Of a stretch of 64,000 nt of DNA, positions 40,732 to 63,832 are shown in pieces. The translations under genes were made by a program, and so were the position numbers. The stretch spans positions 8,356-72,355 of the forward strand of contig CAXTYQ010000007.1 in NCBI GenBank assembly GCA_964248505.1, read 5' to 3'. Origin of the DNA: an uncultured Acidobacteriaceae bacterium. Its GTDB lineage: Bacteria; Acidobacteriota; Terriglobia; Terriglobales; Acidobacteriaceae. The notes below the pieces were generated by a model. It was not told the origin of the DNA. It did not search any database and saw only the letters and a program-made list of their open reading frames with translations. Every line of letters starts with the position of its first letter. The stretch's first letter is position 1.

Positions 40732-42916
40732 ACCGGCGTTCAATCTCGACGCGACCTTGTCAGGGTTCGTCAAGCGCGAGCTCTGGCCCACCCCCGGCCG
40801 GCGCGACTGGGCCACGCGGGCAGCCATTACCGCGTGCATCACATTGCTCATCGGCGAGACATGCCGCAGTCAGAATCTCTTTATCGGGTTGTTTATTCCG
40901 CTTCTTCTCCCCAGGGATACCCCTCAACAAACCTGGGCCGGCGCCAAAGGCACCATGATCATCGCATGGTCCGCGTGCGCCTTCGCTATCGTCTTGACGC
41001 TTCTGACAGCGGACTTGCCGTGGTTGCGTGTGACGGCCCTGGCCTTCGGCGTTTTCGTGTGTGTGCTCCTGTCGAGGGGCTTGCATCAACCTCCGATCGC
41101 CGCACTCGGTTCCGTGACCGTCTCCCTGGTCCTTATCCGGATGGACAGCGTAAACAGCGCGGAGGCCGCCATCACTACCGGCCTGTGGCTGGCCTTGATG
41201 ATGAGCACCGGCTGCCTGGTTGCGACGGCCGTGGACTTCCTTTACCCTCACCCGAGCCCGCAGCAGCGCATCACCACGGCGATTGTGGATCGGCTGCAGG
41301 GGGCGGCCGCTGTGCTGAAGCGGAGCGGGGGCGCGGAGTTGAGCCGCGAAGAGCAGCAAAGAGTGGGCGCTCTGGGCAAGCTGGCCCTTGCCGGGACGGG
41401 CAGCTTACGACAGCTGTTTCCGGTGCTGTCGACACAACCCTCGATCGACCGGAACTACGTGCTGCGCCTCAGCGCCGTTTTGAATGGCATGGACCTTTTG
41501 TCCGATCAAGCGATACAGCTTTCCAGCCACGACACCACTCACTTCAACGAGGAGCAAAAGAGGCTGGTCGACCAGACGGCGCAGGGTTGCCTCGCCCTGG
41601 CGTGCAACGTCGAGCGCAATGTCACCACAGCGCGCGAAGACGACAAAGGTCACGACTCTGCTCCGAATCCCGTCGGCGGTCGGGGTCCAGGACAGCTGAT
41701 CGCCGATATGGGGTCACAGGTCAGCGATCTTTGGACGCTCTGGACTAGTGACGTCACAGCCACCAAGGATGCCGAACAACCGGCTGCCGAGAAGCCCTCC
41801 AAAGCCCCGCCAAAGTCCGGGCCCTTCGTTACGACCGACGATATCCGCTTCGCCGTCAAAGTCATGCTTGCGTGCATGATCTGCTACCTCATCTACAACG
41901 GGGTAGCGTGGCAGGGCATCAGCACCGCCCTGCTGACGTGTTATTTCACCGCAGAATCAACCATCGGCGGCACGTTCCGAAAGTTCGCACAGCGTATCGT
42001 CGGGGTGTTGATCGGCGGCCTGCTATTCGGCATTGTGGGCGTTGCATTGATCACCTCGCACATGGACAACATCGTCGAGTTCATGCTGTATGTGGCTGTG
42101 GTGTTTTTCACCTCGGGTTGGATCACAAAGGGCAGCCCGAGGATCTCCTACGCAGGTTCGCAGATCGCCATGTCCTACGGCCTGGCCACCCTGATGACGC
42201 CGGTGATCACGATTGGGATTGTGGAGCCTCGCAACCGCCTCGTCGGGGTGCTGCTGGGAACGATTGTGATGTGGTACGTCTTCACCCGGCTCTGGCCAGT
42301 CGACACGCTGCCCAGCCAAAAGCGGGCCGTTGCGAGTCTGATTGGAACGGCGAGGGACTTGGCACTACTGGCGGTGGACGATTCCCCCAAGGAGGCCAAA
42401 AGCCCCAAATTCCAAAAGCTCCGGGAAGCCATCAATAAGACGATCAAGCAGGCAGAGGATCAAGCGGATCTTTCGGAGTATGAATCCAAGGATGAGAAAG
42501 GCGTACAGGCCGCGCTCCGTAAATGTCTGGAAAGCACCCGCAACCTGTTAACTCTCGAGATGGCTCACGTCGAGTTGACGATCCGGTCGGCACACGAAAC
42601 CAGCACATCGCAACCCTTGGACAAGGAGGCCGCCCAAAAGGTTGCCGACTACTTATGTCTGTTGGCCAAACAGATCGTTGAAGGATCGAAGCCCGAGCTC
42701 AGACAATCTAAAGATAAGCGACGCCAGTTCGAAGTCACGAGCGCTGATAAGCTGCACGGCTCAGACTACCCGGAGCACGACCAGTCGCCTACGCACCAGG
42801 CATTTGTCAACGCCAGCACACATATCCGCGAGCGCCGAAGCGGCTTACTCGAAAACTTATCTCAGGCTGTAGAAGATGTGACTCTCTACTCTCCTAGCCC
42901 CCAGCCAGAACGTTAG
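40703..42916 (+). CDS. FUSC/MdtO-type inner membrane efflux protein (cassette 2)
   Basis: RELWPTPGR, FAVKVMLACMICY..Y...WQGI.TA, ISYAGSQ, LWP. Confidence 0.88.
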   Translation: MATASQPLSKPAFNLDATLSGFVKRELWPTPGRRDWATRAAITACITLLIGETCRSQNLFIGLFIPLLLPRDTPQQTWAGAKGTMIIAWSACAFAIVLTLLTADLPWLRVTALAFGVFVCVLLSRGLHQPPIAALGSVTVSLVLIRMDSVNSAEAAITTGLWLALMMSTGCLVATAVDFLYPHPSPQQRITTAIVDRLQGAAAVLKRSGGAELSREEQQRVGALGKLALAGTGSLRQLFPVLSTQPSIDRNYVLRLSAVLNGMDLLSDQAIQLSSHDTTHFNEEQKRLVDQTAQGCLALACNVERNVTTAREDDKGHDSAPNPVGGRGPGQLIADMGSQVSDLWTLWTSDVTATKDAEQPAAEKPSKAPPKSGPFVTTDDIRFAVKVMLACMICYLIYNGVAWQGISTALLTCYFTAESTIGGTFRKFAQRIVGVLIGGLLFGIVGVALITSHMDNIVEFMLYVAVVFFTSGWITKGSPRISYAGSQIAMSYGLATLMTPVITIGIVEPRNRLVGVLLGTIVMWYVFTRLWPVDTLPSQKRAVASLIGTARDLALLAVDDSPKEAKSPKFQKLREAINKTIKQAEDQADLSEYESKDEKGVQAALRKCLESTRNLLTLEMAHVELTIRSAHETSTSQPLDKEAAQKVADYLCLLAKQIVEGSKPELRQSKDKRRQFEVTSADKLHGSDYPEHDQSPTHQAFVNASTHIRERRSGLLENLSQAVEDVTLYSPSPQPER

Positions 42917-42980
42917 CCAACCACTACCAACAAAGCTCTATTAGTGCTTGTCTTTGCAAGGCGCCTTATAAGGAGGAAGC

Positions 42981-43361
42981 ATGAATGCTCATACTCTGTA
43001 CGTAATTGCTCGATGCCTTGTCGCGCTGATGTTTCTGATGTCGGCGATCGGAAAGGCTGGCAGCTGGAAACAATCCATCGAGCTTATGCAACAGCACCAC
43101 ATCCCTTTGGCGCCACTGGGCCTACTCGGTTCCATTGCCTTGGAAATTGTAGGAGGCACGATCTTGCTTGCCCTGGGACTCTTCATGCTTCCTCTCACCT
43201 GGATACTGGTCTTCTATGTCTTTGCGGCGACGGTCGCGGTTCCAGTGCAGGACATCCTGACAAACAAGGGCCGGGCTCAAGGGATGCAACTGCTCGGATC
43301 GAACCTGGCGATCATCGGCGGTCTTATCGCCCTCATGGCGTGCGCCGTCGCGGGTGTATAA
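42981..43361 (+). CDS. DoxX family membrane protein
   Basis: AR..VALMFL.SAIGK, LEIVGG, NLAIIGGL; AGGAGG SD. Confidence 0.85.
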   Translation: MNAHTLYVIARCLVALMFLMSAIGKAGSWKQSIELMQQHHIPLAPLGLLGSIALEIVGGTILLALGLFMLPLTWILVFYVFAATVAVPVQDILTNKGRAQGMQLLGSNLAIIGGLIALMACAVAGV

Positions 43362-43431
43362 AAAACCCGTTTTACCTGGGAGTCGCTGAATCATAAACGC
43401 AACAACGCGCCTTCAAAGCAAGGAGAAGCAA

Positions 43432-43875
43432 ATGCCGACTAACACCAACCAACTGTTTATCGATCATGCGGGTATGGCGGTTCCGGACCTCGAAGCTACC
43501 ATCGAGTGGTACCAGCGCGTCTTCGACTTCAAAGTGGTTCAGCGTTTTTCAACCCCACAGTTCACGGCGGCCTTTATGCAGTGTGAAGGTGGTCGCCTGG
43601 AGATCTTCCAGCCAACTCCGCCCCCGCCGGCTAAGCCGACCAAGCCGCTCACTTCGGCTGATCTCACACCCAAAATGTTGAAGTTGGGATTTACCCATGT
43701 TGCCTTTGGCGTTCCGGATGTCGACGCAGTGTACGAGCAAGCCGTATCCCGCGGAGCTACTTCGGTCAACCCCCCGAGCACGCAACCAGGAGGTACCCGC
43801 TTCGGACATATCGGCGATCTGAACCAGAACATCATCGAGCTGATCCACACAGTCCCATCCCCGCCGGAGAAGTAA
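43432..43875 (+). CDS. VOC/glyoxalase family protein
   Basis: DHAGMAVPDLE..WY, LEIF, HVAFGVPD, IIEL (H/E/H/E metal ligands). Confidence 0.9.
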   Translation: MPTNTNQLFIDHAGMAVPDLEATIEWYQRVFDFKVVQRFSTPQFTAAFMQCEGGRLEIFQPTPPPPAKPTKPLTSADLTPKMLKLGFTHVAFGVPDVDAVYEQAVSRGATSVNPPSTQPGGTRFGHIGDLNQNIIELIHTVPSPPEK

Positions 43876-50784: not shown

Positions 50785-51558
50785 ATGACTTGGCGTGTGA
50801 TCTTGCTTGGGGCACTACGAGCGTGGCTGCTTTGTGCATCCTGGATGGGCTTTGCTCAGGGAACCGTCACAGGCCAGCCAGCCCTGTCGGTTGAGGATTC
50901 TCTCCGTACTATGTCCGCGCAGGCCGGCGTCATCTTCGTCGGCACAGTGCTGCGAGTCACGCACAAGGGCGGTGGCGATGGTGCTTCGGCCGGTGTGGTC
51001 GAGGTCGACTTCGAGGTCAATCAGGCCGTGCGCGGGTGCACCTCCGGCTCGGTGTACACGTTGCGGGAGTGGGGCGGCCTATGGGCGCCAAACCAGTTCC
51101 GGTATCAGGTCGGTGAGACAAAGTTGATGCTGCTCCACGCTCCCGGAGCGTCCGGGATGAGTTCTCCCGTAAGCGGTATGGATGGAGCCATTCCAGTACG
51201 CGGAAACGTCGGTTCAGCCATTGAGAACGGGAGCACACCGACTTCTGAGCCGATCGTCGATCTACGCTGGGTCGCCGCAAAGGTCGGCCGCCCTTCGGTC
51301 TACGCGACGGTACAGCCCGGCCAGCATCTGCCGAACACTATCGCCAACGGCGGGCGCGAACAGACAGGGGCCGCCGAAGCGGCAAGCCCGAGAAGCATGG
51401 GCAGCGTGAGCGGCGCGAGGAGCATGGCAATTCACTCAACGGCAGACACAGACGCCACCGGCATCGCTTCCGTCTCGGTCGACACACAGCAAGCTTCCGT
51501 CTCAACCGTTCTTCATCTGATGGCGTCCTGGCAGGAGGGAACCAATGCATCGCGATAA
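50785..51558 (+). CDS. exported protein with putative TIMP-like OB-fold domain
   Basis: GGAGG SD, signal peptide, AGVIFVGTV...VDFEV..VRG...VGE..LMLL; overlaps next gene by 14 nt. Confidence 0.65.
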   Translation: MTWRVILLGALRAWLLCASWMGFAQGTVTGQPALSVEDSLRTMSAQAGVIFVGTVLRVTHKGGGDGASAGVVEVDFEVNQAVRGCTSGSVYTLREWGGLWAPNQFRYQVGETKLMLLHAPGASGMSSPVSGMDGAIPVRGNVGSAIENGSTPTSEPIVDLRWVAAKVGRPSVYATVQPGQHLPNTIANGGREQTGAAEAASPRSMGSVSGARSMAIHSTADTDATGIASVSVDTQQASVSTVLHLMASWQEGTNASR

Positions 51559-54500
51559 TCGCTCTCTGGCAGCAACTTCAGCCTTCACTCGGAGCGCATT
51601 CGTGGCGGCCGCGATCGTCATCGTCCTCCTTCTGTGTGGTTCACAGGCCCAGGCCGGCGGCCCACGTTGGGTAAGCGGCCCCCCCTACTTCAACCCAACC
51701 GGGCTTTCCATCGTCTGGTACACCAACCAGCTCCAATACTTCACCGATCCCGGCGATCTCAGCTCCAGCGTGAACCACCAAGCCGCGGATGCTCTGGTCG
51801 CCCGTGCCGCAGCGGTCTGGAACGTCCCCCAGAGCTCGCTTGTCCTCAACCAGGGCGGCTCGCTCAACGAGCACGTGAGCGCGCGAAACTCCACCATGGG
51901 CCCGAACGGTCCGGTTCTACCGACGGACGTGCAGCTCGCGAATTACCAGGCCGTCCCGCTCGCCGTCATCTACGACACCGATGGCTCGATCATCGATCTC
52001 CTGCTCGGGCAGGGGGGCAGCGATCCCTCCGGCTGCCTGCAGAACGGTGTTGTCGAGAGCGTCGACTCCTTCTCTCCCGGATCAAAGATCCTCCATGCGT
52101 TGCTCATCCTGAACGGACGCTGCACCGGTCCAGCTCCAGAGCTCCAGCTGCAGATGCAGTATCAACTGATGCGCGCCTTCGGTCGCGTCCTTGGACTCAG
52201 CTGGTCGCAGGTAAACGACAACGTCTTTACCAAAACGCCGACCCCGACCAACGACCAGTTCCTGAACTGGCCCATCATGCACCCGATCGACATCCTCTGT
52301 GGTCCGTACACCTACCAATGCCTCCCTCAGCCGTTCACGCTGCGCCCGGACGACATCTCGGCTCTCAGCCAGCTCTATAACAACGCAACCGGAGCTCCCG
52401 TCGGTCCCGGCAAACAGAGCACGTTGGCCCAGGCAGGAGCGATCTGGGGCGTCGTCAACTTCCCTGACGGCACCGGCATGGAAGGCGTCAACGTGACGGT
52501 GCGCCGGATGGAAAAGTTCTACAACGTCCCCGAGGCCTGGCAGACCGCATCCTCGGTCACCGGCTTTGCCTGGCGCAGCAAAGGCTGGACCCCAATCGCC
52601 GGCCAGGACAGCTCACCTCTCGGTAGCGTCGGCGCCTTCGAGTGGCGCGAAGGTTACTTTCGCATTCAGGCGATCCCTCTTCCAACCTTTGAGGACTGGC
52701 AAAGCCTTATCATCACCACCGAACCCGTCAATCCGCTCTACACCGGAACGTATTCGGTCGCGGCGTACTCCGGCACAACGATCGCGCCGGCCGGCTCCCC
52801 CGTCACGCAGGAGGTTTACATCGCTCCAGCGTACAGCGACACCTACGTGCCCTTTACAGCAACAGATGCTCCAGGAACCTGCACCAGCGCCACGGACGGA
52901 ACAGAAGGCGCGCCGCAAACTGTAGCTCCGAGCGGCCTCTGGACAGGGACCCTGTGCGAGTTCGGCCATACCGCCTGGTCAAGCATCACCGTGAAAGCGA
53001 ACCGCACCTTCACCCTCGAAGTCACTGCAAAAGACGCACAGGGCAGCGCAACTATGACGAAGATGATGCCCATCCTCGGTGTCTGGCAGGCGAGTGACGC
53101 GCCGGGGCAGCTTCCCACGGTCGCCTCGCAGGTCGCGGCTTTCAATACTGTCGTCGGTACGACCGCTCTCCGCGTGGCAAGCACCGCCTATAAGACCTTC
53201 CGATTCGCGGTCTCAGACCAGCGCGGAGGCGGCCGAAAGGATTACGCCTACGCCGGTCGCCTCTTGTACGCAGACTCGGTCTCGCCCATCAACGTCCCAG
53301 CTTCCGGAGGTGTGGTCACGATCTCCGGAATGGGCTTCCAGCAGGGAAGCACTGTAACTGTCGCCGGCCATGCCGCAACCGTGAACAGCACGACGGCCAA
53401 CAGCCTGGTCGTGTCCGTCCCAACGCTACAGACTATCGGCCGCGGTCAAGGTTTCTGGGCAGACATCACCGTGCGTGATCCCGCGACCGGTGCGACGACC
53501 ACAATGACCCAGGCGATCAGCTACGGTTCAGCAACCGACTCGCTCTCGCTTGTAAGCGCGCCGGCAGCGAAGGTCCAGACCGGTCTGAGCTCGGCAACCT
53601 CCTTTGCGGTTCGCGCCATCGCTCCCGATGCGGTCACTCCCATCGCAGGAGAATCGGTCGTCTTCTCGGCTGTGGGCGGTGCAGTCACCTTCGGCTGTGG
53701 ATCCTCCTCCTGTGCCGTACTCACAGACGCATCCGGTAAAGCAACAACCACCGTGACTCCGACGACGGCGGGGACAGTTACGCTTTCAGCATCCGGCCGA
53801 AGCGGCACGGTAACGTCCACGTTCGTTGCTGCAACACTGCCGGACCAAGTCCAGGCAACCAGCGCGCCTTCGGGCCTCCTTACGGTCGGCGTAGTCGCCT
53901 CACAAGTATTTGCCGTGACGATCACCGCAGGCGATGGCGTCACCCCCCGACCGGGCAGGATTGTAGCCTTCTCCTCTGCGCAAGGAACGGCAAACTTCGG
54001 CGCATGCGGCGGAACCTCCTGCACCGTCACGACGGATGCGTCGGGAGTTGCAAAGACAACCGTAACCCCTCTCGCCCCAGGATCTCTGACCCTGATTGCG
54101 TCCTCGAGCGCTGGTACAGTGGACGTGCCGGCCACCTCCGCGGCGCAGACGATCCGGCTTCTGAGCGCGCCGGCAACGGCAGCACCGGTCGGCGTTCCCA
54201 CATCGGCGAGCTTCGCCGTGAAGGTGCTCGGTCCGGATGGAACCACTCCCGTAGCCGGTGAGTCCGTCGCCTTTACTGCCAACGGAGGAGGTGTGCAGTT
54301 CGGTGCTTGTGGGCAAGCCACCTGCACCGTAATCACGGACGCAACTGGGACCGCCTCAACCCCTGTGCTGCCGACTGCAAGTGGAACGATCACCTTGACC
54401 GCGGCAAGCATCGCAGGCTCCGTCACCGCGAGTTTTGCGGCAGAGACCCACGTCCGATCAGTAACTGCCACGACACCCGCCGTTTACGTAGCCGCGGGAG

Positions 54501-55093
54501 CAAATGTCAGCTGGGTCTCCCAAGTCAACCTCTCGGACAACGTCGGAGCCGTAGCAAACGTTCCGCTGCAATGGCTGGCGCAAGGCAATGTCCAGCTTTC
54601 GGCGACCCAGTCAGTTAGCAACACGCAAGGTTCCGCGCAGATCTTAATAACTTCCCAGGCGCTCTCAGCCGGAGCTCAGGCGACGGTTACAGCCTGCGCC
54701 TGGAGTCTCGTGTGCGCGAAGATCGCCGTTCAAGGCGTAAGCCCAACGGACTGGCAAATCCTTCCAATAAGTGGAGCGACCCAGTCACTCAGCGCAGGGC
54801 AGGCCTTCGGTGCGGTTGTCCTTCAGGTGACTGACACCGCCGGACATCCAGTGGCGGGCGCGACCGTCAGGGTCTTCCAGACGAATGAGGGTTGGGCAGC
54901 ACCCTGCGTCAGTCTCGGGTCCTGCCCCTCGGTGCCCGTGTATGGAACTAGCGACATAGAAGTTAACTCCGATGCGAACGGACTGCTCTCGGTCACTCCA
55001 CTTGACACCCCTGTCGGAGCAGAAATCACCAAAATCGCCATCACCGCCGGCACCCGCAGTCTCTCGGAAGTCACTCTGGAAAAACATCCATAA
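51545..55093 (+). CDS. large exported protein: degenerate metzincin-like domain, IPT/TIG domain, tandem Big-like repeats
   Basis: Signal peptide; RAFGRVLGLSW/PIMHP/LRPDDISALSQLY; VSP..VPASGG.VTISG.GF; three ~100-aa repeats. Confidence 0.8.
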   Translation: MHRDNRSLAATSAFTRSAFVAAAIVIVLLLCGSQAQAGGPRWVSGPPYFNPTGLSIVWYTNQLQYFTDPGDLSSSVNHQAADALVARAAAVWNVPQSSLVLNQGGSLNEHVSARNSTMGPNGPVLPTDVQLANYQAVPLAVIYDTDGSIIDLLLGQGGSDPSGCLQNGVVESVDSFSPGSKILHALLILNGRCTGPAPELQLQMQYQLMRAFGRVLGLSWSQVNDNVFTKTPTPTNDQFLNWPIMHPIDILCGPYTYQCLPQPFTLRPDDISALSQLYNNATGAPVGPGKQSTLAQAGAIWGVVNFPDGTGMEGVNVTVRRMEKFYNVPEAWQTASSVTGFAWRSKGWTPIAGQDSSPLGSVGAFEWREGYFRIQAIPLPTFEDWQSLIITTEPVNPLYTGTYSVAAYSGTTIAPAGSPVTQEVYIAPAYSDTYVPFTATDAPGTCTSATDGTEGAPQTVAPSGLWTGTLCEFGHTAWSSITVKANRTFTLEVTAKDAQGSATMTKMMPILGVWQASDAPGQLPTVASQVAAFNTVVGTTALRVASTAYKTFRFAVSDQRGGGRKDYAYAGRLLYADSVSPINVPASGGVVTISGMGFQQGSTVTVAGHAATVNSTTANSLVVSVPTLQTIGRGQGFWADITVRDPATGATTTMTQAISYGSATDSLSLVSAPAAKVQTGLSSATSFAVRAIAPDAVTPIAGESVVFSAVGGAVTFGCGSSSCAVLTDASGKATTTVTPTTAGTVTLSASGRSGTVTSTFVAATLPDQVQATSAPSGLLTVGVVASQVFAVTITAGDGVTPRPGRIVAFSSAQGTANFGACGGTSCTVTTDASGVAKTTVTPLAPGSLTLIASSSAGTVDVPATSAAQTIRLLSAPATAAPVGVPTSASFAVKVLGPDGTTPVAGESVAFTANGGGVQFGACGQATCTVITDATGTASTPVLPTASGTITLTAASIAGSVTASFAAETHVRSVTATTPAVYVAAGANVSWVSQVNLSDNVGAVANVPLQWLAQGNVQLSATQSVSNTQGSAQILITSQALSAGAQATVTACAWSLVCAKIAVQGVSPTDWQILPISGATQSLSAGQAFGAVVLQVTDTAGHPVAGATVRVFQTNEGWAAPCVSLGSCPSVPVYGTSDIEVNSDANGLLSVTPLDTPVGAEITKIAITAGTRSLSEVTLEKHP
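53540..54440 (+). repeat. three ~300-bp intragenic Ig-like repeats
   Basis: Each unit: SAP...FAV...D..TP..G..V.F...FG(A)CG..C.V.TDA.G.A...V.P...G..TL.A; boundaries approximate. Confidence 0.8.
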
Positions 55094-60091: not shown

Positions 60092-61147
60092 TCAGTTCCC
60101 CAGCGTCGCCATATCGATTACAAACCGATACTTCACGTCGCCTTTGATGACGCGTTCGTACGCCTCCGACAGCTTGTCGACTGAGGTCATCTCAATGTCC
60201 GAAACAATGCCCTTCTCGGCACAGAAGTCCAGCATCTCCTGTGTCTCCTGCATTCCACCGATCATCGACCCTGACAACGAGCGCCGGTTCGTGACCAGCG
60301 AAAACGCCGAGATCGACTCAGGCTTATCCGGTAAACCTACCTGGCAAAGCGTTCCATCCAGCCGCAGCAAACCCATGTACTGATTCAGGTCGTGCGGTGC
60401 AGAAACGCAATCCAGGACGAAGTCAAAGCTCTTCATCACCTTTTTCATCGCATCGGCGTCTTTGGAAATCACGACCTGGTCTGCACCCAGACGTCGCCCA
60501 TCCTGGGCCTTGCTCTCGCTTGTCGTAAACAAAGTCGTCTCCGCCCCAAACGCATGCGCAAACTTCAGCCCCAAGTGCCCAAGTCCGCCCAGCCCAACGA
60601 TCCCGACCTTCTTTCCCGCCCCTGCACCCCAATGCCGCAAAGGCGACCACGTCGTGATCCCCGCGCACAACAACGGCGCCACCGCCGCAAGCTCCAGCTT
60701 GGGCGAGATCGTGTGGACGTACCGCTCCGGAGCGACGATGTTGTTCGCATAGCCGCCATAGGTAACCTCGCCCGCGTACGTCTTCGCGTTGTACGTGCCC
60801 ACCATCCCGCGCTCGCAGTACGGCTCCGCTCCAGCCCGGCAGTTGTCGCACACCTGGCATGTCTCAACCGTTACCCCAACCCCTGCTAGATCCCCTACGC
60901 GGAAACGCTGGACCTCTTCGCCCACCGCTGTCACCCGACCTACGATCTCATGCCCCGGCACCATCGGGTAGATCGATCCACCCCACTCATCCCGCACTTG
61001 GTGGATATCCGAGTGACAGATCCCGCAAAAAGCAATCTCCACCACCACATCCTTTGGCCCCGGCTCGCGCCGCTCAAAGGAAAAGGGCGCCAGCCCCGAT
61101 GTTGGATCCTGCGCAGCGTACCCCTTGGACTGAATCACTGTCATCAC
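60092..61147 (-). CDS. Zn-dependent NAD(P) alcohol dehydrogenase (cinnamyl ADH-like)
   Basis: CGICHSD, PGHEIVG, structural Cys cluster, PLLCAG, GLGGLG, YRFVID. Confidence 0.93.
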   Translation of the reverse strand: MMTVIQSKGYAAQDPTSGLAPFSFERREPGPKDVVVEIAFCGICHSDIHQVRDEWGGSIYPMVPGHEIVGRVTAVGEEVQRFRVGDLAGVGVTVETCQVCDNCRAGAEPYCERGMVGTYNAKTYAGEVTYGGYANNIVAPERYVHTISPKLELAAVAPLLCAGITTWSPLRHWGAGAGKKVGIVGLGGLGHLGLKFAHAFGAETTLFTTSESKAQDGRRLGADQVVISKDADAMKKVMKSFDFVLDCVSAPHDLNQYMGLLRLDGTLCQVGLPDKPESISAFSLVTNRRSLSGSMIGGMQETQEMLDFCAEKGIVSDIEMTSVDKLSEAYERVIKGDVKYRFVIDMATLGN

Positions 61148-61404
61148 CCTCTCAACCTGTTCGCTACATAGATGCGAGATGTGTCGGCAGCGTCAGACAT
61201 AGCTCTGAATCCGAAAGCGCGAAAAAATACTCAAATGAAATAATGGAGATATCCGAGGGATCGATCCTTGATCTCACGAGAAGTTTCTCGGGATTTCCTC
61301 AACTTGCTCAGGCTTCCCCGGACACAATATCACTTTCAGGTGATGCCCAGGTTCGGCAGGTGGGCTACGCTTTATTAGCGCTACTGCGCTCGAGGGAATT
61401 CCTC

Positions 61405-61644
61405 ATGAAATCTGCCATCCGTACATCGGTTCTCGCCACCGTCGCCGTCCTCGCCCTCTCCGCCAGCTCCGCCCAGATCGCTTCCGCGGATGTCATCGGT
61501 GGTGCATCCCAATCTGCGGGCAGCGCAGCCTCGGCGAATCACGTCGGTGGCTGCAATCCGTACCCCTATCCGCCACCATCACCTAAGCTGACCTTCAGCT
61601 TCGGGAGTATCATGTCGATCGTGGGGCTTTACTTTGGCCTCTAG
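61405..61644 (+). CDS. 79-aa putative secreted peptide precursor
   Basis: GAGGGA SD, ATG 61405; signal peptide ending ASA, polar core with GGCNPYPYPPP, hydrophobic C-tail. Confidence 0.75.
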   Translation: MKSAIRTSVLATVAVLALSASSAQIASADVIGGASQSAGSAASANHVGGCNPYPYPPPSPKLTFSFGSIMSIVGLYFGL

Positions 61645-61652
61645 GTGAGTGG

Positions 61653-62417
61653 ATGGGTCAGGGCATCGTTGATGAGATCCTGTGGGCGGCGGGCCTGTTC
61701 CTGGTCGTCGCCCTCTTCATCGTGCTTATCAGTCGCAAACGGTACCGGACGCTACCCTGGTTCACCACCTGGGTCGGTTTTCAGATGGTCGGGTCCGCGC
61801 TGCTCTTTGTAATTTGGCGCAATTTGCCCGGCCGTTACCAGGTGGCGTACTGGTGTTTTGGGGCGGTAGATACCCTCTTGCAGCTCCTGATTCTCAGCGA
61901 GATCGCCCGATCTGTCCTTTGCAGAAACGGTGTCTGGGTCCAGGGTGCAAAATCCCGCTTCCTCCTTCTCTCCGCTTTGGGGGCCGTCGTCGCCGCCGTC
62001 ATGGCCGCCTGGGTCAAACCGCTCGCCAACACTCCAATGGAAGCTTGGAGCGTGCGCGGAAATCTGTTCATCACGCTTCTGGTCTGCCTCACTTTTACAT
62101 CCATCCTCTCCGCCTCCTCACAGTTCGGCCTGCACTGGAGAAGCCATGTCATGCGCGTCGGCTACGGTCTCACCGTCTGGTCGCTCGCCTCGTTTGCCGT
62201 CGACGCCCTCCACGGATACTGGGGAGCCACGAATCACTTCAAGACCCTCGAACACTTTGACATTGCGGTTTGGGAGCTTTCCCTCGTATATTGGTCGGGA
62301 GCGCTATGGGTTCCAGAAGAAGAACCAAAAGAGATCCCCCCGGCCTTGATCGACAATCTGTCGCACATCCACGCTGACCTCAACCTCAGCCCTGAACATT
62401 CGCCCGGTCCCAACTGA
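61653..62417 (+). CDS. seven-TM membrane protein of unknown function
   Basis: 254 aa, seven hydrophobic helices by eye, short acidic C-tail; 8 nt after peptide gene. Confidence 0.8.
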   Translation: MGQGIVDEILWAAGLFLVVALFIVLISRKRYRTLPWFTTWVGFQMVGSALLFVIWRNLPGRYQVAYWCFGAVDTLLQLLILSEIARSVLCRNGVWVQGAKSRFLLLSALGAVVAAVMAAWVKPLANTPMEAWSVRGNLFITLLVCLTFTSILSASSQFGLHWRSHVMRVGYGLTVWSLASFAVDALHGYWGATNHFKTLEHFDIAVWELSLVYWSGALWVPEEEPKEIPPALIDNLSHIHADLNLSPEHSPGPN

Positions 62418-62430
62418 ACACGAGGACACC

Positions 62431-62958
62431 ATGTACCCACTCCTGGCGTTAGCTTCCCTCCTGCTCGTCGTGATCGCCTACCAGGGCGGATTCATTCTTC
62501 GCCGTCGCCGCCTCCTCCAACCCTGGCAGACTCTCGTGGCGGGCATCCAGCCCGTAGACTCCGATAAACTCATTGCCCTCGCTCGCACCTATCTCGAACC
62601 CGGAAAAAATCAGCTCGAAATCGAGCCGGAAGAGATGTGGATCCTGATCGGCGGCATGGACGGCCTGTCCAAGCTTCGCGCGAACTCCAAGGTCATGCTG
62701 GATCTCGCACAGCACGTCGAACGTTGGAACGTCGATGAGGGCCGCGTCGTAGCCGAAATGATGCGCCGCGATGCATTTCGCCTGCGCCAGGCACTCTGGC
62801 GTCTCACCGCCAGCCTCGTCCTCCGGCACAAAGCCTTCCGCGCCCCCTTTCACCTGCAAGAAGCGTCCGCTGCCTACTACCTCATGCGCCAGCGCCTCCT
62901 CGGCCTCTACGAGAACAATCATGCCGGCCTCTACCCACAGCTGGTAGCCGTTCTGTAG
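62431..62958 (+). CDS. membrane-anchored helical hypothetical protein
   Basis: GAGGA SD; N-terminal TM then RRRR and soluble helical domain; 13 nt after 7TM gene. Confidence 0.8.
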   Translation: MYPLLALASLLLVVIAYQGGFILRRRRLLQPWQTLVAGIQPVDSDKLIALARTYLEPGKNQLEIEPEEMWILIGGMDGLSKLRANSKVMLDLAQHVERWNVDEGRVVAEMMRRDAFRLRQALWRLTASLVLRHKAFRAPFHLQEASAAYYLMRQRLLGLYENNHAGLYPQLVAVL

Positions 62959-63123: not shown

Positions 63124-63199
63124 GCTGGCGTAGCTCAGCTGGTAGAGCATCTGATTTGTAATCAGAGGGTCGGGGGTTCAAATCCCTTCGTCAGCTCCA
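63124..63199 (+). tRNA. tRNA-Thr (TGT)
   Basis: 76 nt cloverleaf, anticodon loop TTTGTAA, CCA end. Confidence 0.97.
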
Positions 63200-63279
63200 G
63201 ACCTCTTCAGAAACACGCAACATAAGTCGCTCTGCACCGGGTCATCGTCAGCCACGATCGGCATACCCGGGCAGACAGG

Positions 63280-63366
63280 GCACAGGTGGCCGAGTGGTTA
63301 ATGGCAGCAGACTGTAAATCTGCCACTCTATGAGTTACGGAGGTTCGAATCCTCCCCTGTGCACCA
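63280..63366 (+). tRNA. tRNA-Tyr (GTA)
   Basis: 87 nt, long variable arm, loop CTGTAAA, CCA end. Confidence 0.97.
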
Positions 63367-63394
63367 CCTCTTCTCCCAAGAGCCCACGCCCGCT

Positions 63395-63574
63395 ATGCCC
63401 TCCGACTTCAGCCCCGGCAGCAGCGGCCGCATGCTCATCGCTTTCGCAGTGCTCTCGGGCCTCGCTCTCCTCTCGGCGTACACCATGGAGCCCGGGCGAT
63501 ACCGTTCTCTCACCTGGGTGCTGCTCGGCTTTTTTGCCTTCCGCATCCTTCTCGGAAAGCTCCGGTCGCGTTAG
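63395..63574 (+). CDS. small two-TM protein inside the tRNA cluster
   Basis: 59 aa from ATG 63395; two hydrophobic helices, basic C-terminus, GC3-biased codons; no SD. Confidence 0.6.
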   Translation: MPSDFSPGSSGRMLIAFAVLSGLALLSAYTMEPGRYRSLTWVLLGFFAFRILLGKLRSR

Positions 63575-63599
63575 GATAGACGGGTTGGATATTTCTTTG

Positions 63600-63674
<75 letters not shown>

Positions 63675-63757
63675 CGTTCTTAAGCTGTTCTCTACCCTCA
63701 AGCGAGTGCACGGTACGGAGACAGTTCAATGAAAAGCTAGAAGCTAAAATCTTTCCC

Positions 63758-63832
63758 GCGGGAGTAACTCAGTGGTAGAGTCACAGCCTTCCAAGCTGTT
63801 GGTCGCGGGTTCGATTCCCGTCTCCCGCTCCA
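63758..63832 (+). tRNA. tRNA-Gly (TCC)
   Basis: 75 nt, loop CTTCCAA, CCA end. Confidence 0.97.

Follow-up and report, generated by a model that had tools for sequence, protein, structure and literature searches.

A conserved gene trio of the Acidobacteriota, encoding a proline-rich peptide precursor, a stand-alone seven-helix protein and a single-helix partner, is a candidate peptide-sensing module

A stretch of 64,000 nucleotides (nt) from an uncultured Acidobacteriaceae bacterium (GCA_964248505.1, contig CAXTYQ010000007.1, positions 8,356 to 72,355; hereafter the window) carries three adjacent open reading frames (ORFs) encoding the precursor of an exported proline-rich peptide, a stand-alone protein with seven transmembrane helices (7TM) and a membrane-anchored partner with one helix. 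This gene linkage is genuine; it is old and widespread within the Terriglobia, a class of the Acidobacteriota. Sequence comparison and structural models suggest that the trio is probably a peptide-sensing module, in which ORF1 would provide the ligand precursor, ORF2 a kinase-free receptor and ORF3 an adaptor. The observations come first from the genomes themselves, as gene linkage, conservation, precursor design and family distribution.

61405 to 61644, + strand: ORF1, peptide precursor of 79 amino acids (aa); no Pfam match, and a sole NCBIfam match that covers the signal region (E 0.005)
61653 to 62417, + strand: ORF2, 254 aa, stand-alone 7TM protein with a predicted G-protein-coupled receptor (GPCR)-type fold, N-out/C-in, and a cytoplasmic helix 8
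62431 to 62958, + strand: ORF3, 175 aa, one N-terminal membrane helix and a predicted cytoplasmic four-helix bundle

The genes are co-oriented and separated by only 8 nt (ORF1-ORF2) and 13 nt (ORF2-ORF3), as stated in the initial annotation, which was made from the letters alone. That annotation also regarded ORF1 as hidden in the tail of a longer frame (60859-61644), and this 261-aa frame is indeed spurious and not conserved in relatives.

For the analysis of linkage, 154 distinct 7TM genes were gathered from top-ranked and spread matches of several searches, a subset of all matches, and 144 of them had enough upstream DNA. A peptide gene was defined as a co-oriented ORF of 30-220 aa that ends within 260 nt of the 7TM gene and has a basic N-region and a hydrophobic core. 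Such an ORF lies upstream of 118/144 7TM genes, compared with 277/1720 long ORFs and 22/94 polytopic proteins used as controls from the source genome; with the further demand for at least three Pro in ten residues, the counts are 98/144, 72/1720 and 5/94, respectively. Exact repeated 6-mers are found in 36/118 7TM-linked precursors and 6/277 controls. The rule errs in both directions: about 11 of the positives are wrong assignments or belong to the second member of a tandem pair of 7TM genes, and at least seven loci scored negative although an obvious peptide lies just outside the rule. Tandem 7TM pairs behind one peptide gene and before one partner were seen at L022, L046, L134, L148, L180 and L231. 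Downstream, a profile detected an ORF3-type partner at 112/152 7TM genes. Twenty ORF3 matches without a listed adjacent 7TM match served as a hold-out: a 7TM gene lies just upstream at 15/20, and the same rule found a signal-peptide ORF in 12/12 loci with an intact 7TM gene and enough DNA.

Mobile elements also carry these genes. Two Acidisarcina plasmids, not used for profile building, encode peptide, 7TM protein and partner, and their peptides are annotated coding sequences with GGTNPRP and GGGAPRP cores and hydrophobic tails. Downstream of both plasmid trios (L215:3638-5616, L216:3664-5628) lies a related gene of 75-114 aa with no counterpart in the window. The jumbo phage Tunturi_5 (PP885688.1, L214:4577-5780), likewise not used in profile building and the sole matching phage record of 50,697, encodes the 7TM member gp204 (E 3e-42 against the family profile); a 103-aa unannotated signal-peptide ORF, Pro- and Asp-rich, lies upstream, and no ORF3 is present. 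The main text of the Tunturi_5 paper does not mention gp204 (PMC11924767). Three scans of other viral contigs gave no confirmed member.

Profiles found ORF2 relatives in 166/251 genomes of the class, with up to eight copies each, and in 30/301 genomes of the phylum, of which three belong to other classes (8 candidates scored per genome). A search with the single ORF2 sequence returned 411 clusters at 50% identity (E<=0.001) and relatives in 95/151 family genomes, while ORF3 relatives occur in 104/151; one or two of the genomes counted are marked unpublished (G002, G025). The trio recurs in genomes of the Acidobacteriaceae and of the class, which the initial annotation had named as support. Identical proteins from cultured Acidobacterium, Pseudacidobacterium, Tunturiibacter and Granulicella are labelled "hypothetical protein", an Atlas search returned only unnamed Acidobacteriota clusters, and no description of the trio was found in the literature covered, which mostly excludes subscription papers. 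Pfam, NCBIfam and PDB sequence searches with ORF1-3 and their alignments gave no consistent family, in keeping with the initial statement that the module could not be assigned to a named one; the Pfam and NCBIfam searches also found no kinase or helix-turn-helix (HTH) domain in it, again as proposed.

The source genome has three 7TM copies, in the window and on contigs C14 and C66, and these paralogs carry three different peptide cores. C14 holds a second full trio, whose peptide has a GTNPRP core and hydrophobic tail, and the C66 copy has a different, Cys-containing peptide and no ORF3. This copy (L193:5133 region) and 12 related loci share a two-Cys peptide, a long-tailed 7TM protein, the lack of ORF3 and often a neighbouring ribosomal protein S1-like gene; several loci of this two-Cys clade (L055, L056, L058) have a duplicated peptide gene.

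Within ORF1 three parts can be distinguished:

61405 to 61488, + strand: predicted Sec signal peptide, residues 1-28, ending A-S-A (cleavage read from the sequence; A-x-A at the same place in 4/4 close loci)
61537 to 61572, + strand: conserved core, residues 45-56, with G-x-N-P-x-P (predicted ligand)
61588 to 61641, + strand: hydrophobic C-terminal tail, residues 62-79, ending G-L (predicted membrane tether)

ORF1 is very likely a real gene, because its start, core and tail are conserved, its indels are in frame and it is preceded by a candidate promoter box, a hairpin and a ribosome-binding site. The close relatives L002-L004 keep the ORF1 start, A-x-A at residues 26-28, the NHVGGCNP core and the hydrophobic tail; every indel within their ORF1 is in frame, and third positions account for 18/32, 26/52 and 13/31 base changes. 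In 4/4 close loci NHVGGCNP stays, while the signal-to-core linker can shrink by 10 aa. ORF2 of these closest loci, from records titled Acidobacteriaceae, is 78-89% identical. More broadly, the window's clade comprises 35 7TM rows and 27 accepted peptides, and G-x-[ND]-P-x-P is present in 19/27 of these as well as in a plasmid copy found later. Of the 19 cores, 11 have T at the first x, 6 have C and 2 have G, which makes the single Cys of the ORF1 core incidental. The hydrophobic tail occurs in 15/27 clade peptides and in 15/122 peptides of the whole 7TM family; tailed clade peptides are located 8-64 nt from the 7TM gene, and K/R is absent from the last 8 residues in 15/15 tails. Repeats are found in 4 clade peptides, with tail and repeats together in 0/4. 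The tripartite precursor of the initial annotation, and the constancy of motif and tail between varying flanks that it anticipated, are thus seen in ORF1 and its close loci, and the motif extends through much of the clade, but neither the Cys nor the tail does so.

Cores of other clades include DG-led polyproline repeats, P-x-C-x-x-C and P-x-C-P-P-x-D-P-N-x-C, and across the family they are very short and mostly neutral or acidic, not cationic. Proline-rich ORFs of about 20-60 aa with a strong ribosome-binding site and no Sec signal precede the 7TM gene at L113, L126, L127, L140, L141 and L152; it is suggested that such ORFs are a variant with another export route or none. Peptide types track 7TM clades on the tree, a hint of co-diversification that is suggestive only, because kin share traits. 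The peptide-receptor rank correlation is 0.22 against a permutation maximum of 0.08 (110 peptides, in which kin are not independent).

The seven helices that the initial annotation assigned to ORF2 are reproduced in its AlphaFold2 model (mean predicted local distance difference test score, pLDDT, 93.9), which has seven long helices and a C-terminal helix at 230-244. The top 50/50 VIA structural matches are all GPCR-fold proteins (Z 10.1-14.0, 5-13% identity), headed by the LYCHOS 7TM domain (Z 14.0, root-mean-square deviation 3.7, 192 residues aligned) and including peptide receptors, among them the vasopressin V2 receptor (Z 12.4); for helical proteins, the aligner cautions, Z values under about 13 may reflect a common arrangement. 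The mean K/R count is 2.1-3.1 for the tail and loops 1, 3 and 5, compared with 0.8-1.1 for loops 2, 4 and 6, which points to an N-out/C-in topology. The odd loops are also the more conserved and the even, outer loops the more variable (entropy 2.6-2.9 vs. 3.2-3.5 bits). As modelled, ORF2 is predicted to have the seven-helix, N-out/C-in arrangement of the GPCR superfamily, with no common ancestry implied, and the ORF3 bundle is predicted to be cytoplasmic. At the sequence level, 1/57 members matches GPR180-TMEM145_TM (E 0.0005) and no other GPCR similarity was seen, with no PDB sequence match below E 0.3. The GPCR-type fold by itself is not novel, since a published study describes it as common in bacterial 7TM sensors fused to kinases or cyclases (PMC13581589). 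ORF2 relatives stand alone, with open frames of <=384 aa among the full-length genome matches listed and <=376 aa among the best 150 cluster representatives; no fused form turned up when 7996 candidates of 560-2000 aa were scored, although this test is weak.

Family-wide conservation in ORF2 is confined to W11, P35, F37, Y62, Y66, W67, E83, G172 and W214. The initial annotation had drawn attention to polar residues within the membrane. Of these, E83 is a family-wide feature (134/154), D73 (31/35 in the clade, 46/154 overall) and Q77 (33/35, 42/154) belong mainly to the clade, and the acids of helix 7 are not conserved (D203 and E208, each 4/35 in the clade). R135 is conserved only within the window's clade. 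Helices 1 and 3 carry aromatics at their outer ends that would be suited to a proline-rich ligand. A complex prediction of ORF2 with ORF1 residues 28-79 (score 0.01, mark 0.32) counts neither way.

In the ORF3 model (pLDDT 88.3) a helical bundle comes after an N-terminal helix, and in the sequence a basic cluster lies behind the membrane helix, in agreement with the single membrane helix, basic stop-transfer and cytoplasmic helical domain originally described. VIA matches of this model are generic bundles only (best Z 9.6) and Foldseek gave none at E<=0.001; since the VIA matches are generic, no FAT, vinculin or Rsd domain was assigned. The 7TM cytoplasmic tail is long in 29/40 partnerless genes and 1/112 partnered ones. 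A role for this tail as substitute for ORF3 was considered and not adopted, as independent pairs give only p 0.25 with few independent changes.

What might such a module control? An XRE-type HTH gene lies beside 62/154 7TM genes and a protein of about 150 aa without family beside 55/154, in the same three layouts, which survive rearrangement; both counts are lower bounds, many loci having only 1.5 kb of flank. The XRE gene is also present at 10/20 hold-out loci, and its family in 125/251 class genomes. The XRE regulator is likely to be the output in many lineages. The protein matches HTH families only, and its C-terminal domain, which has an invariant C-x-W-C-like motif, received no Pfam, PHROG or PDB assignment and no match to the tetratricopeptide repeat (TPR); the 150-aa neighbour has conserved Y-x-H and H residues and no family assignment from the searches. 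A LexA/S24-like fold of the XRE C-terminus was suggested only by eye and by an E 0.003 match, and was not confirmed. A repressor-like XRE gene beside phage capsid-like genes on contig C1 (about 42800-43700, minus strand) has a weak match (E 0.003) to this C-terminal domain. At L128:4877-6062, L023:2522-3656 and about 55 other loci the XRE-HTH and 150-aa genes form a tail-to-tail pair, which occurs also without a 7TM gene. Small PilZ-like proteins and GGDEF-like proteins, judged by eye, recur within 1-4 kb in two clades (L159-L192, L111-L148), hinting at a link to c-di-GMP. No kinase gene adjoins the trio in the 64-kb window.

A sequence of events can be proposed for the peptide-sensing module. 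ORF1 would be exported by Sec and cut by signal peptidase after Ala28. The single core of the window's peptide would then stay on the inner membrane by its tail or be clipped free, whereas in other lineages tandem repeats would give many soluble core copies. The core may dock on the outer aromatics W11, Y62, Y66 and W67, with specificity set by D73, Q77 and R135, and the inner face of ORF2 (loop 1 R..P.F, E83, W162/H165 and helix 8) would alter its contact with ORF3. In the last and weakest step ORF3 might bind or release a cytoplasmic regulator, probably the adjacent XRE-HTH protein with its 150-aa neighbour in many lineages and another protein in that of the window.

Several observations weigh against this interpretation. 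Among the hold-out loci, 3/20 have full upstream sequence and no 7TM gene. Five 7TM genes of one clade (L073, L075, L076, L077, L083) have neither an adjacent peptide nor a partner that could be found, and there are several single counter-examples; the initial annotation had taken 7TM homologs without a peptide to speak against its view, and this applies in part. In a ten-member clade, 6/10 loci have very short ORFs that are rich in proline and lack a Sec signal. No partner accompanies 40/152 7TM genes, and homology between distant single-helix partners and ORF3 was not established (hhalign probability 2%, E 0.022). When paralogs were controlled for, co-variation of peptide and 7TM protein gave 17 cases for, 10 against and 1 tie, and the co-phylogeny named at the outset as support is at most suggested by the agreement of peptide types with 7TM clades. 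To the caution on Z given above is added the lack of any Foldseek match of the ORF2 model at E<=0.001. Finally, 17/20 XRE loci chosen as unlinked have neither 7TM gene nor partner nearby, and the XRE gene was not found in the source genome (90% complete) nor in 13/17 genomes of the same genus, including near-complete ones that bear the trio; for this reason an XRE output cannot be assumed for the window's lineage.

The trio could alternatively monitor the envelope of its own cell, the peptide being a reporter kept in the producer's periplasm or membrane and ORF2/ORF3 sensing its export, clipping or degradation. The diderm envelope confines Sec products to the periplasm, the tail of 15/27 clade peptides would hold them on the producer, and the tailed peptides are encoded close to the 7TM gene. 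We regard this as unlikely, since most family peptides are tailless, 36/118 precursors are multi-copy, and cores differ by clade and paralog with the phage having its own pair, a diversity that a housekeeping sensor does not need.

Peptide uptake is another explanation, in which ORF2 and its single-helix partner would import the peptide and the cytoplasmic XRE regulator would bind it in the manner of RRNPP systems. A precedent for a transporter with a one-helix subunit is SLC51A/SLC51B, and the XRE gene at 62/154 loci would supply the receptor. SLC51A, which needs SLC51B as an obligate partner, belongs to the GPCR-like OSTalpha/TM184 family (PMC13581589). Transporter families are each matched by at most 2/130 or 1/57 ORF2 family members, and no consistent Pfam, NCBIfam or PDB match makes ORF2 a characterised transporter or enzyme, an identity that the initial annotation had named as fatal to its proposal. 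With the XRE C-terminal domain lacking a TPR match and the gene itself not found in the source genome or in near-complete trio carriers of its genus, uptake seems distinctly unlikely.

An antimicrobial proline-rich peptide with ORF2/ORF3 as dedicated immunity pair would explain secreted, often multi-copy peptides that track the adjacent membrane protein, their resemblance to apidaecin-type precursors, and the plasmid and phage copies. It is improbable given that the cores are so short and not cationic, that one clade recurs, in 8 loci, at a single chromosomal position next to a ribosomal protein S1-like gene, and that bacteriocin, CPBP/Abi and ABC exporter families were neither matched nor recurring as neighbours.

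A maturase or sortase role for ORF2, which would then cleave or modify ORF1 in the manner of AgrB or an exosortase, is very improbable: a tailed tripartite precursor beside a polytopic protein and the conservation of D73, Q77 and E83 in the clade would fit, but the family has no conserved catalytic set (HExxH 1/154, EExxxR 0/154; no conserved intramembrane Cys, His or Ser, and no Cys/His in columns conserved in >=55% of 154), Cys is present in only 6/19 cores, no basic residues follow the tail and most peptides are tailless. The initial annotation had left a choice between receptor and maturase in its scheme of ligand precursor and transducer, and it is the receptor branch that fits the conserved trio, the motif, the enrichment, the fold and the variable outer loops.

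How does the proposed peptide-sensing module compare with known systems? In its probable way of working it comes closest to a prepropeptide-GPCR pair or to Agr-type systems, and it fails membership of the Agr, sortase, protease, rhodopsin and kinase-fused 7TM groups. Yeast alpha-factor (MFalpha1) with Ste2 and animal neuropeptide precursors with their GPCRs likewise combine a signal-peptide precursor, often with tandem short cores, and a seven-helix N-out/C-in protein, the latter predicted here. The trio differs in being a bacterial operon, in its 5-13% identity to GPCR structures without a sequence family match, and in that its peptides as a rule lack dibasic Kex2-type sites. To our knowledge bacteria lack heterotrimeric G proteins and arrestins, and none was found among the recurring neighbours; the only constant partner is a membrane-anchored four-helix bundle.

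Bacterial peptide signalling is known mostly from Gram-positive species and relies on kinase or cytoplasmic TPR receptors. Agr (AgrD/AgrB/AgrC/AgrA) and ComC/ComD are peptide quorum sensing systems in which, as here, a small peptide gene lies beside a polytopic membrane protein that varies with the peptide. The trio uses a Sec signal instead of the AgrB or double-glycine route, in a diderm host; the ring-closing Cys (or Ser) of the AgrD core is not conserved in its cores (C 6, T 11, G 2 of 19), no AgrB/AgrC match was found in Pfam or NCBIfam among 130 and 57 members, and as a rule no kinase is fused or adjacent. From exosortase/PEP-CTERM systems it differs in lacking a basic cluster after the ORF1-type tail (15/15 without K/R in the last 8) and the conserved Cys/Arg/His catalytic set, and the absence of both sets of hallmarks agrees with the initial view that the proteins are not recognisable members of either. 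Nor does the ORF2 family have the motifs of CPBP/Abi metalloproteases (counts above) or the helix 7 retinal Lys of microbial rhodopsins, a Lys at residues 199-219 occurring in only 14/154 and none being conserved, which upholds the claim made at the outset. Bacterial 7TM sensor domains fused to kinases, cyclases or hydrolases (HisKA_7TM, 7TMR-DISM, 7TMR-HD) likewise use a GPCR-like seven-helix fold for sensing, and GPCR-like bacterial 7TM proteins are noted in PMC13581589; ORF2 differs from them in standing alone (the search among long proteins being weak), in having no Pfam match and in having its own peptide gene.

RRNPP systems (Rgg/SHP, PlcR/PapR, ComR/XIP) and phage arbitrium depend on an oligopeptide permease and a cytoplasmic TPR receptor. 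They resemble the trio family in the link of an exported peptide precursor with an XRE-type HTH protein and in the one phage-borne copy, but in the trio family the constant partner is a dedicated 7TM protein, and no TPR match was seen for the XRE protein. OSTalpha/OSTbeta and class B GPCRs with RAMPs also pair a seven-helix protein with a one-helix partner; the folded domain of ORF3 is predicted to be cytoplasmic, and no sequence or specific structural link to them was seen.

A broader view, possible but in our estimate short of an even chance, is that of a Terriglobia-wide, kinase-free peptidergic network of eukaryote-like design, in which prepropeptides, often repeated-core polyproteins, would act through stand-alone GPCR-fold receptors and four-helix adaptors on XRE regulators. 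Up to eight paralogs would then serve as private channels, and the jumbo phage may have captured a pair to join or jam host signalling. If a stand-alone GPCR-fold protein of a diderm phylum does have a dedicated peptide ligand, this would be a new signalling logic. It would also offer a testable bacterial model of how multi-copy peptide precursors pair with receptors of seven helices, and a starting point for studying how cells communicate in a group that ranks among the most abundant in soil. On the practical side, the cores are short enough for synthesis, and cultured carriers exist, as does a cultured phage-host pair with a copy.

Candidate control elements were recognised upstream of ORF1:

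61329 to 61344, strand not assigned: candidate operator, inverted repeat ATCAC-N6-GTGAT, upstream of the promoter
61366 to 61371, + strand: candidate -10 box TACGCT
61377 to 61390, + strand: GCGC-loop-GCGC hairpin, a predicted 5' mRNA stem-loop just 5' of the ribosome-binding site

The arms of the inverted repeat are kept and its spacer changed in the 4 closest loci, and the genome has 5 exact copies; it is not kept in more distant clade members, and is thus a weak candidate and not a general one. The box, as TA[CG][GC]CT, and hairpin lie 5' of 16/27 clade peptides, the C14 paralog among them, and the combined pattern has 22 matches across the 3.85-Mb genome, two of these at the two trio loci. 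The hairpin alone is present 5' of 23/27 clade peptides, with variable loop length and a 5-bp stem on folding. A generic sigma-70 scan found no site.

The trio is flanked by a divergent gene, which we take to be zinc alcohol-dehydrogenase-like, on one side and a tRNA cluster on the other, and the locus is also present in four contig sets from other samples (kind unrecorded). Downstream of ORF3, positions 63124-63832 hold tRNA-Thr, tRNA-Tyr, a third tRNA and tRNA-Gly, and a 71-aa hydrophobic ORF without family (63359-63574) sits between tRNA-Tyr and the third tRNA. Elsewhere in the window, 51545-55093 encodes a secreted protein of 1182 aa in which IPT/TIG and bacterial Ig-like repeats occur; its N-terminal region has no assigned family and contains an ExxRxxGxxLGL segment that resembles a zincin motif without the histidines.

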